A DNA stretch of 64,000 nt from Escherichia coli (lineage in GTDB: Bacteria > Pseudomonadota > Gammaproteobacteria > Enterobacterales > Enterobacteriaceae), in the NCBI RefSeq assembly GCF_003334815.1, contig NZ_QOWO01000007.1. One strand, given 5' to 3'. Shown piece by piece: positions 39,576 to 45,344 of the stretch. Each line of letters begins with the position of its first letter. Within the stretch, counting starts at the first letter, position 1. The notes below the pieces were generated by a model that had not been told where the DNA came from, did not search any database, and saw nothing but the letters and a program-made list of their open reading frames with translations. A program made the translations under genes and the position numbers.

Positions 39576-42500
39576 ATGCAAAGGAAAACTCTATTGTCGG
39601 CCTGTATTGCATTAGCTCTGAGTGGTCAGGGTTGGGCGGCAGATATCACAGAGGTAGAAACCACCACAGGTGAAAAGAAAAATACCAATGTGACTTGTCC
39701 GGCAGACCCAGGAAAACTCAGTCCGGAAGAGCTTAAACGCTTACCCTCTGAATGCTCTCCTTTAGTCGAACAAAACCTGATGCCATGGCTTTCCACAGGC
39801 GCTGCTGCGTTAATCACGGCCTTAGCCGTAGTGGAACTAAACGACGATGATGATCATCATCATCGCAACAATTCTCCACTCCCACCGACACCCCCTGATG
39901 ATGAATCAGACGACACTCCAGTTCCCCCAACTCCTGGCGGAGATGAGATAATACCGGACGATCCGGATGATACGCCTACACCTCCCAAACCGGTTTCGTT
40001 TAATAATGACGTTATTCTCGATAAAACAGAAAAAACGTTAACTATTCGCGATTCAGTTTTTACTTATACCGAGAATGCTGACGGGACTATATCTCTGCAA
40101 GATAGCAATGGTCGTAAGGCAACGATTAATCTTTGGCAGATTGATGAAGCGAATAACACTGTTGCCCTTGAAGGGGTGAGCGCAGATGGCGCAACGAAGT
40201 GGCAATATAATCACAACGGTGAGCTTGTTATTACGGGTGATAATGCCACAGTAAACAACAATGGCAAAACCACCGTTGACGGTAAAGATTCCACCGGTAC
40301 GGAAATCAACGGTAATAACGGGAAAGTGATTCAGGACGGCGATCTGGATGTCAGCGGCGGCGGTCACGGTATTGATATCACCGGTGACAGCGCGACGGTG
40401 GATAACAAGGGCACCATGACCGTCACCGATCCGGAGTCCATGGGTATCCAGATCGACGGTGACAAGGCCATCGTCAATAACGAAGGCGAGAGCACCATCA
40501 CCAACGGTGGCACCGGCACCCAGATTAATGGTGATGACGCCACGGCAAACAACAACGGCAAAACCACCGTTGACGGCAAGGATTCCACCGGTACGGAAAT
40601 CAACGGTAATAACGGAAAAGTTATTCAGGACGGCGATCTGGATGTCAGCGGCGGCGGTCACGGTATTGATATCACCGGCGACAGCGCAACGGTGGATAAC
40701 AAGGGCACCATGACCGTCACCGATCCGGAGTCCATCGGTATCCAGATTGACGGCGACCAGGCCATCGTCAATAACGAAGGCGAGAGCACTATCACCAATG
40801 GCGGCACCGGCACTCAGATCAACGGTAACGACGCCACCGCGAATAACAGTGGAAAAACCACTGTTGATGGAAAAGATTCCACGGGTACCAAAATCGCGGG
40901 CAATATCGGCATTGTAAATCTGGATGGTAGCCTGACTGTTACAGGCGGTGCGCATGGTGTTGAGAACATTGGTGACAACGGCACGGTTAACAACAAAGGA
41001 GATATTGTTGTTTCCGATACTGGATCGATTGGCGTGCTCATCAACGGTGAGGGGGCAACAGTATCCAATACGGGTGATGTTAACGTTAGCAATGAAGCGA
41101 CAGGGTTCAGCATCACAACCAACAGTGGGAAGGTTTCGCTGGCAGGCAGTATGCAGGTTGGCGATTTCTCGACCGGGGTAGATCTTAATGGCAACAATAA
41201 CAGCGTGACGCTGGCGGCAAAAGATCTAAAAGTGGTCGGGCAGAAAGCGACGGGCATAAACGTTTCTGGCGATGCGAATACAGTGAATATCACTGGTAAC
41301 GTTCTGGTTGATAAGGATAAAACCGCAGACAATGCGGCGGAATATTTCTTCGATCCATCCGTGGGTATCAACGTTTACGGCAGTGATAATAACGTGACGC
41401 TGGATGGAAAGTTAACTGTTGTATCAGACAGTGAGGTTACTTCTCGTCAGAGTAATTTATTTGATGGCAGCGCAGAGAAAACGTCAGGTCTGGTTGTGAT
41501 TGGCGATGGCAATACCGTTAATATGAATGGTGGACTTGAACTGATTGGAGAGAAAAACGCGCTTGCAGATGGGTCGCAGGTTACTTCCTTGCGCACAGGA
41601 TATAGTTATACCAGCGTTATTGTCGTTAGTGGTGAGTCGTCGGTATATCTGAATGGAGATACGACAATCAGCGGAGAATTCCCTCTGGGGTTTGCCGGGG
41701 TTATTCGGGTACAGGATAAAGCTTTGCTGGAAATTGGCAGTGGCGCTACGCTAACAATGCAGGATATTGACAGTTTTGAACATCATGGGACAAGAACCCC
41801 AGAACTTACTTATGCTGATTCCGGTGCGAAAATTGTTAATAAAGGTACTGTTGAAATTCAGAATTTAGGTTTTGCTTTTGTTACTGGTGAAAATACAACA
41901 GGTATAAATAGTGGCACGATCTCGTTATTACAAAATGGTAAAGATCCGGCACCGTCTCCCATTGTTTTACTGGCTACTAACGGAGGGAGCGCCACTAATG
42001 CAGGTACGATCACAGGTAAAGTGACGGAACAACATAGCGTATTTAACAAGTATTCAACGGGCACATCGAATTCATTTATTTTTAATAACGATGTCAGTAG
42101 CATAACAGGGTTAGTCGCTCAATCGAATAGCACAATTATCAATACTGACAGCGGCATCATTGATTTGTATGGTCGTGGTAGTGTCGGCATGCTTGCTATA
42201 GCAGATTCAACAGCAGAAAATCAGGGTAAAATTACACTGGATTCTATGTGGGTAGATGCAAATGACACTACCGCAATGCGAGATATAGCTAGCAACAGCG
42301 CCATTGACTTCGGTACAGGTGTGGGAGTTGGTACTGATAGTTATAGTGGTGCAGGGAAAAATGCAACAGCAATTAACCAATTGGGCGGTGTTATAACTAT
42401 TTATAACGCCGGCGCAGGTATGGCGGCCTATGGCGCCAGCAATACAGTTATTAACCAGGGGACGATTAACCTCGAAAAAAATGGTAATTATGACGATAGT

Positions 42501-45344: not shown

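Follow-up and report, generated by a model that had tools for sequence, protein, structure and literature searches.

An intact allele of the polymorphic ydbA/upaH locus of Escherichia coli that very probably encodes a type Va autotransporter of the BigA/YdbA family

Introduction

The gene ydbA of Escherichia coli is a pseudogene in strain K-12, full-length copies are found elsewhere and the allele of uropathogenic E. coli (UPEC) has been studied as UpaH. A stretch of 64,000 nucleotides (nt) of E. coli DNA (contig NZ_QOWO01000007.1 of assembly GCF_003334815.1, hereafter referred to as the window) contains an uninterrupted copy of ydbA whose own central passenger type, unlike that of UpaH, is unstudied. 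The question raised by this locus is what the open ydbA frame encodes, how it is related to upaH and whether the gene may still be in use. Based on the evidence described below, it is very probable that the window gene is an intact allele of one polymorphic ydbA/upaH locus, organized as a single-gene unit and encoding a type Va autotransporter of the BigA/YdbA family. An initial annotation, made from the nucleotide sequence, had already proposed a large intact autotransporter at this place, and its claims are discussed with the results that bear on them.

An uninterrupted ydbA frame between paaY and pdxI

The open reading frame (ORF) starts with ATG and comprises 1922 codons plus a stop, without any internal stop in the ORF list or the translation (Table 1). 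The single uninterrupted YdbA ORF of 1922 amino acids (aa) described in the initial annotation was borne out both by this list and by a locus position matching that of K-12. A segment of 6155 nt spanning ydbA is 100% identical to E. coli O141:H4 P13-6 (protein WP_001573416.1), in which the gene order is paaX-paaY-(21-codon ORF)-ydbA allele-pdxI-ydbD, and window ydbA is likewise placed between paaY and pdxI. The identical 1922-aa protein was found in 469 blocks of a public assembly collection.

In K-12 MG1655, two ydbA pseudogene pieces are annotated at the same place with the insertion sequences (IS) IS2 and IS30 between them. The earlier statement that K-12 ydbA is broken by these two elements agrees with annotation and alignment, and both insertion points were located (Table 1). 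The K-12 gene contains one more copy of a 294-bp repeat than the window, so that a repaired K-12 ydbA would encode 2020 aa versus 1922 here; a protein cluster with a 2020-aa representative holds 10,492 member sequences.

Two observations concern the surroundings of the gene in other genomes. In P13-6, truncated paaE-like and paaF-like pseudogenes joined by a deletion are annotated at 31553-32513 of its locus. The deletion expected from P13-6 was rejected for the window, where positions 30404-32448 hold an intact 255-aa ORF of paaF length and an ORF of sufficient length to contain paaE, indicating that the window is a close relative of P13-6 that differs at this point. In CP128440.1, an identical ydbA gene appeared to be located in a prophage; both junctions (2846-2855 and 8884-8893) are runs of 10 N, therefore the prophage context was regarded as an artefact of assembly or scaffolding and no real transposition.

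The naming of the gene in databases is inconsistent, which is a practical point for users of annotation. The P13-6 allele is annotated as "BigA/YdbA N-terminal beta-barrel domain-containing protein", and the labels met for the gene at this locus also include "pectate lyase-fold domain-containing protein", "hypothetical protein" and "EntS/YbdA MFS transporter". The last label, which is clearly incorrect, is attached to alleles of the ydbA autotransporter in many RefSeq and GenBank records; very likely it originated in a confusion of the names ydbA and ybdA that was propagated by annotation. The name UpaH was absent from all the annotations seen for the gene at this locus.

ydbA and upaH as alleles of one locus

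UpaH is far longer than the window protein, about 2845 aa. In CFT073, an autotransporter gene that the original assembly broke into two ORFs lies directly upstream of pdxI, and a statement in PMC5595812 describes upaH as misassembled in this genome. The primers for upaH polymerase chain reaction (PCR), designed on GenBank FJ719778.1 (PMC11658850), map inside this CFT073 gene with zero mismatches. Identity between the window and CFT073 amounts to 91% over the N-terminal 283 aa, 78.5% over the last 432 aa, 83.6% over the barrel (last 250 aa) and 85% between the AT-rich paaY-ydbA spacer and the DNA upstream of CFT073 upaH, while in the central passenger it is about 33-55%, the window allele thus not matching the UpaH passenger sequence type. 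A third allele, of 2838 aa, occupies the same locus in strain 3385 and its product shares 69% identity with the window protein across 1709 aa. Altogether, the shared locus, the homologous ends and upstream DNA and the mapping of the primers indicate that the names ydbA and upaH refer to alleles of the same polymorphic locus. In the literature searched, no paper was found that names both UpaH and ydbA.

In a passage of a review, UpaH ranks as the largest among the AIDA-I-type autotransporters of E. coli; it is also stated there that UpaH promotes biofilm, confers a slight advantage in mouse bladder colonisation and has passenger variants that differ in biofilm activity (PMC12525524). The view that the role of the ydbA product is uncharacterised has therefore to be revised, since the gene at this locus in CFT073 is upaH, published as a biofilm and bladder-colonisation factor according to the same passage (PMC12525524). 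Conversely, the term "adhesin", as applied to the window allele in the initial annotation, is unsupported, its central passenger differing strongly from that of UpaH. By analogy with UpaH, a role of window YdbA in surface contact or biofilm is probable.

Domain architecture

Type Va autotransporters are exported by Sec, their barrel is inserted by the beta-barrel assembly machinery (BAM) and the passenger is translocated C-terminus first. As judged from sequence features and structure models, YdbA carries the parts of such a classical monomeric autotransporter, namely a predicted signal peptide, a PF03797 barrel and a terminal aromatic residue.

The Pfam family Autotransporter (PF03797) matched aa 1696-1892 (E 1.1e-18) and the protein ends in ...MLNFKKTF, in agreement with the C-terminal beta-barrel ending in Phe that had been noticed initially; as the domain was detected by hidden Markov model (HMM), the lack of a beta-domain that would have refuted the initial annotation does not apply. 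All sequences of the C-terminal alignment keep this Phe, which is followed by an extra Arg in 3 of the 16 homologues. In the AlphaFold2 (AF2) model of the last 483 residues (aa 1440-1922), a beta-sandwich is followed by a helical segment and then by a barrel that has about 12 long strands and predicted local distance difference test (pLDDT) values of 80-95, and the top matches of the barrel among PDB structures in Foldseek were EstA, AaaA, EspP and NalP (E 8e-9 to 9e-7). The BigA_beta sandwich is situated between passenger and translocator. The last long helix of the helical linker (about aa 1626-1644, 19 residues in the AF2 model) precedes the barrel immediately and is presumed to span its pore.

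With E up to 10, Pfam detected nothing besides BigA_N, BigA_beta and Autotransporter in aa 1-1133 and aa 724-1922, and the precomputed Pfam assignments give the order BigA_N, BigA_3rd, BigA_4th, BigA_3rd, BigA_beta. BigA_N and BigA_beta are present in the order expected of the BigA/YdbA family, evidencing membership in it. The score against NCBIfam NF033178 (Salmonella BigA), 1075.9 bits with the best stretch at aa 1120-1922, is far below the 3400-bit cutoff, which makes YdbA a relative of BigA and not BigA itself. When aa 23-242 were searched exhaustively against 1.84 billion representative proteins, 51 clusters were obtained at E ≤0.001, whose named members (E. coli, E. albertii, Enterobacter, [Enterobacter] lignolyticus, Citrobacter and Rahnella) are all Enterobacterales. 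The same C-terminal barrel motif occurs in nearly all full-length family members among those listed, two of them having truncated C-termini.

The very long Gly/Asn/Thr-rich passenger reported in the initial annotation agrees with the composition of aa 221-1490 (14.9% Gly, 12.4% Asn and 10.7% Thr). In the N-terminal AF2 model (aa 1-324, built on an 18-sequence alignment), aa 221-324 form regular three-strand rungs (pLDDT 83-96), with three short strands per ~24.5 residues, supporting a predicted three-sided beta-helix in which the 98-aa repeat would correspond to four rungs. The number of these repeats varies among strains: there are two copies in the window and three in K-12, and the full-length alleles among 120 listed cluster representatives contain 1-8 copies, always in frame. 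A search of the full YdbA sequence against PDB chains returned nothing at E ≤0.01. A second pair of Cys residues is present in the middle of the passenger (aa 1025 and 1030, ICTFGVC, ~42648-42665) and is kept in alleles of the K-12 type and of the strain-3385 type (ICVNTNC); these residues might be joined in a small disulfide loop located on the beta-helix.

The nature of the passenger also bears on whether it is released as a toxin or enzyme, cleaved off as in the serine protease autotransporters from Enterobacteriaceae (SPATEs) or VacA, rather than attached as a stalk. This is considered very improbable. The hydrophobic Gly/Ala-rich segment near the N-terminus recalls the N-terminus of VacA and was counted in favour of release, as was the NalP-type barrel (Foldseek; Celik 2012, PMC3419190), but the Pfam scans at E up to 10 detected no protease, lipase or other catalytic domain, the passenger has the composition and repeats of a structural beta-helix and UpaH is described as surface-located and biofilm-promoting in passages of PMC5595812 and PMC12525524. 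An attached stalk is thus the preferred reading of the passenger.

A conserved N-terminal module

The N-terminus of YdbA (MQRKTLLSACIALALSGQGWA, followed by AD after the cut) is basic at its start and has a hydrophobic core of 11 residues, small residues ahead of the cut and a GWA motif followed by Ala. These features, read by eye, are of Sec type and their pattern is conserved in 18 homologues, consistent with the signal peptide proposed in the initial annotation. A lipoprotein reading of "LSAC" (aa 7-10) was discarded, as this motif is too near the N-terminus and its Cys is not kept in the homologues.

The predicted signal peptide is followed by an order of elements shared within the family: a Cys-Cys loop, a Gly/Ala hydrophobic segment, a His/Asp/Asn patch, a Pro/Asp linker whose length varies among members, and BigA_N. 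In the loop, C41, P42, L48, L56 and C60 are invariant across the 18 homologues, otherwise 27-49% identical, and AF2 predicts two short helices with moderate confidence (~pLDDT 70). The hydrophobic segment (aa 70-88) contains G75, also invariant in the 18 homologues; its helix is flanked by acidic residues, shows a Gly/Ala "small-xxx-small" pattern and is accompanied by a His-rich patch. The acidic His/Pro-rich linker that had been noted initially was confirmed by composition (29% Pro and 25% Asp in aa 89-139) and is the counterpart of the (T)PPDDGG(D/N) tandem linker in relatives of BigA.

The segment of aa 70-88 deserves separate consideration. It could be read as a stop-transfer anchor leaving YdbA in the inner membrane, with no working autotransporter, on the grounds that it is the sole segment of YdbA with a 19-residue Kyte-Doolittle average above 1.4 (value 1.78) and that AF2 gives it no packed structure (pLDDT <50). 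On the other hand, summing its biological hydrophobicity yields marginal values of 0 to +2.4 kcal/mol in 18/18 homologues. None of the 18 has a net positive charge on either flank (upstream -4 to 0; downstream -5 to 0, usually with His present), which is the opposite of what retention of a helix calls for. In addition, the full-length members listed, except for the two that are truncated C-terminally, keep a barrel that a cytoplasmic location would make useless. Such an anchor is accordingly regarded as highly unlikely. The proposal that aa 70-88 are the real signal peptide was also rejected: the upstream flank is never net positive and is net negative in 16 of the 18 homologues, and it is the first segment that carries the conserved cleavage-type site. 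Export of the hydrophobic segment is therefore preferred, because its retention in the inner membrane would make the conserved barrel useless. Once exported, it might act as a tip element contacting membranes or cells, as a transient tether during export or in retention of the N-terminus in the envelope.

We know of no autotransporter mechanism that accounts for this module of Cys-loop, hydrophobic segment and linker. It may be speculated, although with low probability, that it constitutes either a distinct tip device, in which a membrane-inserting or self-associating helix is carried on a flexible tether, or a secretion-arrest element holding the N-terminus in the envelope. In 2012, Allsopp and colleagues reportedly found that biofilm was lowered by deleting parts of the UpaH passenger termed "conserved region" and "hydrophobic region". 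If that hydrophobic region corresponds to aa 70-88, a phenotype already exists and a mechanism does not. The conserved N-terminal module, with its mechanism unexplained, is the sole lead worth following at this locus.

Proposed route to the cell surface

Combining these data with published work on K-12 and upaH, the following sequence of events can be proposed. Window ydbA would be transcribed from its own AT-rich promoter region to its own terminator and would be kept mostly silent by H-NS, as published for K-12 and upaH. The precursor would cross the inner membrane via Sec by means of its predicted cleavable signal peptide; by analogy with other type Va proteins, the 12-stranded barrel would then be inserted in the outer membrane by BAM and the passenger would exit C-terminus first. 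According to the models, the passenger would fold into a long three-sided beta-helix stalk with a length partly set by the 98-aa repeat, and the far end of the stalk would bear the BigA_N barrel, the flexible Pro/Asp linker and the conserved Cys-loop with its hydrophobic helix.

Several points weigh against the interpretation of the gene as an intact type Va allele of this locus. The signal peptide was assigned by eye alone, and a hydrophobic helix after a cleaved signal peptide is unusual for type Va secretion. The AF2 models cover aa 1-324 and 1440-1922, and comparison of the N-terminal/repeat model with PDB structures in Foldseek gave no significant match (best E 0.04), the weak hits being mostly beta-solenoids (TibA, ice-binding proteins, pectate lyase and hemolysin A); consequently, the beta-helix call depends on the AF2 strand pattern together with these weak solenoid hits and is supported rather than proven. 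Identity of the central passenger to CFT073 UpaH is ~33% across the 600 aa preceding BigA_beta and 55% in the best segment found by BLAST, such divergence implying that the function of the window allele may differ from that of UpaH. Finally, the evidence on the window strain and its allele consists of sequence and structure models.

Upstream region and transcription unit

The 330 bp upstream of ydbA had been described as extremely AT-rich, which is confirmed by a G+C content of 25.5%: this spacer holds the lowest-G+C 300 nt of the 64-kb window (23.7%, the next lowest being 30.7%). With K-12 it shares 329 of its 330 bases. The K-12 paaY/ydbA spacer is one of 78 "promoter islands" (PMC3661553, Table 1), a group for which very low output was reported in K-12, and the entry for the paaY(+)/ydbA(+) island carries a "K" in the H column, denoting binding of H-NS in the data of Kahramanoglou (MG1655) and Oshima (W3110) (PMC3661553). 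In addition, H-NS is cited as repressor of upaH in a passage of PMC5012682, which refers to Allsopp 2012. The silencing by H-NS suggested in the initial annotation is in line with both reports, considering that the window spacer has a single mismatch to the bound K-12 spacer. Thus, with 25.5% G+C observed here, binding published for the K-12 spacer and repression for upaH, silencing of window ydbA by H-NS is a reasonable idea by analogy with K-12 and upaH. In a K-12 rpoZ mutant, a 7.7-fold increase of the ydbA transcript was reported, a value carrying a large error (PMC5811629).

The gene is bounded by intrinsic terminators on both sides (Table 1). The one after the paaY stop ends the paa operon, which makes ydbA a separate transcription unit, and the one after ydbA is kept in strains without this gene, the flank from window position 45335 onwards matching ydbA-less genomes. 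The scan returned 10 terminator-like sites versus 5.1 expected; as to internal termination, it found none on the + strand within the ydbA ORF.

A scan for promoter consensus sites gave 11 against 10.8 expected, no better than chance, for which reason no ydbA promoter was assigned. Positions 38500-46500 were likewise without any Rfam match at E up to 1, indicating no known RNA element in leader or spacer. The small ORF of 21 codons on the opposite strand of the spacer is presumably ynbG of K-12. A hairpin (GGTCGGGTTAGTGCATCCGGCT, 39526-39547, + strand) followed by a T-rich run lies 29 nt upstream of the ydbA start, before the ribosome-binding site; it is probably due to chance, a leader structure being the alternative. 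Inside paaY, positions 39099-39115 (+) match exactly TTGGCATGGAAAAAGCA, the motif listed for the K-12 sigma-54 site IS16 of chromatin immunoprecipitation sequencing (ChIP-seq) (PMC4591121); this site is on the ydbA strand; it precedes the paa terminator hairpin and lies upstream of ydbA, ~460 nt from its start.

Frequency of intact copies and decay of the locus

Over 5426 complete E. coli genomes, the 3' barrel-coding end of ydbA was present in 2529 and the 5' end with the AT-rich region in 2062. A central segment of K-12 type at at least 99% identity was detected in 1236 genomes and was uninterrupted at the K-12 IS sites in 852 of the 5426; among the interrupted records shown, nearly all are K-12 laboratory derivatives. 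In phylogroup A, full-length ydbA was reported in about 42% (PMC4951805). The importance given in the initial annotation to the intactness of the gene cannot be maintained in view of these 852 uninterrupted segments, the 469 blocks with the identical protein and the proportion published for phylogroup A (PMC4951805): full-length copies are common.

The locus is also subject to decay. IS3 interrupts ydbA at codon 38 in 23CRST017, IS1 is present at the locus in LR-50 and WEM25, and in PI24 an IS1-linked deletion reaches ynbC. In ET776 the gene is cleanly deleted and ~25 nt resembling the ydbA 3' end (CTGATGCTGGACGTTCTAA) remain together with the terminator directly after paaY (5987-6065 of its locus sequence, compared with window 45310-45400), suggesting that the absence of ydbA in this strain results from deletion and is not the ancestral state. 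In-frame changes of the repeat, divergent passengers, repeated insertion of IS elements and clean deletion together make this locus a clear example of variation in a gene for a large surface protein.

The frequent and independent decay (IS2 plus IS30 in K-12, IS3, IS1 and the deletions in PI24 and ET776), the lack of the 3' end in more than half of the complete genomes and, in K-12, the binding of H-NS with very low output from the promoter island (PMC3661553) would also be expected if ydbA, intact in sequence, were a dead gene that is permanently silenced and heading to loss, its open frame being explained by recent ancestry. However, the 5.8-kb frame is open in hundreds of genomes, with the exact protein in 469 blocks; members from different genera share the conserved N-terminal module and translocator, including invariant Cys, Gly and barrel residues; the repeat changes are all in frame; and, according to a passage of PMC12525524, UpaH has a phenotype in CFT073. 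A dead gene is thus judged improbable.

Location of the features

Table 1. Features at the ydbA locus, numbered from the first nucleotide of the window
Feature	Position	Strand	Description
Intrinsic terminator after paaY stop	39276..39308	+	Terminator scan; 13-pair stem, -16.0 kcal/mol, T-run; ends paa operon
paaY-ydbA AT-rich spacer	39246..39575		25.5% G+C; presumed ydbA promoter and silencing region
21-codon small ORF in spacer	39349..39414	-	MKYINCVYNINYKLKPHSHYK, then stop; hypothetical protein WP_010723099.1 in K-12 and P13-6
Shine-Dalgarno-like AAGGA	39565..39569	+	6 nt before ydbA ATG; direct sequence reading
ydbA coding sequence	39576..45344	+	1922 aa plus stop; intact allele (very probable) of ydbA/upaH locus
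Predicted Sec-type signal peptide	39576..39641	+	aa 1-22, MQRKTLLSACIALALSGQGWA, cut before A; sequence features read by eye
Cys-Cys loop	39696..39755	+	aa 41-60, CPxxxxxLxxxxxxxLxxxC
Hydrophobic Gly/Ala-rich segment	39783..39839	+	aa 70-88, PWLSTGAAALITALAVVEL
Acidic His/Pro-rich linker	39840..39992	+	aa 89-139, NDDDDHHHRNNSPLPPTPPDDESDD...; 29% Pro, 25% Asp
BigA_N beta-barrel domain	39993..40235	+	aa 140-220; Pfam PF25784, E 7.5e-33; AF2 pLDDT 82-95
294-bp (98-aa) tandem repeat	40236..40895	+	2.2 copies; Tandem Repeats Finder (TRF) period 294, 90% matches
Gly/Asn/Thr-rich passenger	40236..44045	+	aa 221-1490; Pfam BigA_3rd, BigA_4th (precomputed); predicted beta-helix
K-12 IS2 site	41795..41799		Target AACCC, 5-bp duplication; codons 740-742; BLAST, sequence, annotation
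K-12 IS30 site	41847..41849		Codon 758; ~50 nt downstream of IS2 site; BLAST, sequence, annotation
BigA_beta sandwich domain	44046..44297	+	aa 1491-1574; Pfam PF25783, E 3.3e-25; AF2 strands
Helical linker	44298..44588	+	aa 1575-1671; AF2 helices at model positions 143-205
Beta-barrel translocator	44589..45341	+	aa 1672-1922, ends in Phe
Intrinsic terminator after ydbA	45364..45397	+	GC-rich stem and T-run, -16.6 kcal/mol

Comparison with known systems

YdbA resembles AIDA-I and Ag43 in its large passenger, predicted to be beta-helical, and in its C-terminal 12-strand barrel, and differs from them in its NalP-like barrel and in the BigA_beta sandwich situated ahead of the helical linker and barrel. 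No match to passenger or autochaperone families of AIDA-I, pertactin or Ag43 was found in YdbA by Pfam at E up to 10. To our knowledge, the N-terminal module of Cys-loop and hydrophobic segment is absent from AIDA-I and Ag43.

Salmonella BigA ("autotransporter adhesin BigA") shares with YdbA the complete order of signal peptide, Cys loop, hydrophobic segment, Pro/Asp linker, BigA_N, passenger, BigA_beta and barrel. A repeat of variable length occurs in both proteins, namely STTR3 in BigA (PMC5183578) and that of 294 bp in YdbA, but the two repeats are found in different parts of the protein. The BigA model aligns well only over YdbA aa 1120-1922. The variable-number tandem repeat (VNTR) STTR3 lies after the signal peptide and before the remainder of the chain (PMC5183578), a position that would correspond to the Pro/Asp linker of the YdbA family. 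The passenger of BigA was called "AIDA-I-like" and its barrel was grouped with those of NalP-like proteases (Celik 2012, PMC3419190).

With UpaH of CFT073 (Allsopp et al. 2010, 2012), the window allele has in common the locus upstream of pdxI, the AT-rich upstream region, the N-terminal module, the type of 98-aa repeat and a related BigA_beta domain and barrel. The two differ in the central passenger, CFT073 lacks the paa operon beside the gene, and the biofilm and bladder phenotypes were measured on UpaH variants and not on the window allele. The K-12 pseudogene (b1401/b1405) differs from the window copy in its IS elements and in one additional 98-aa repeat, whereas chromosomal position, flanks and spacer are the same and the aligned coding DNA is 97.8-99.96% identical.

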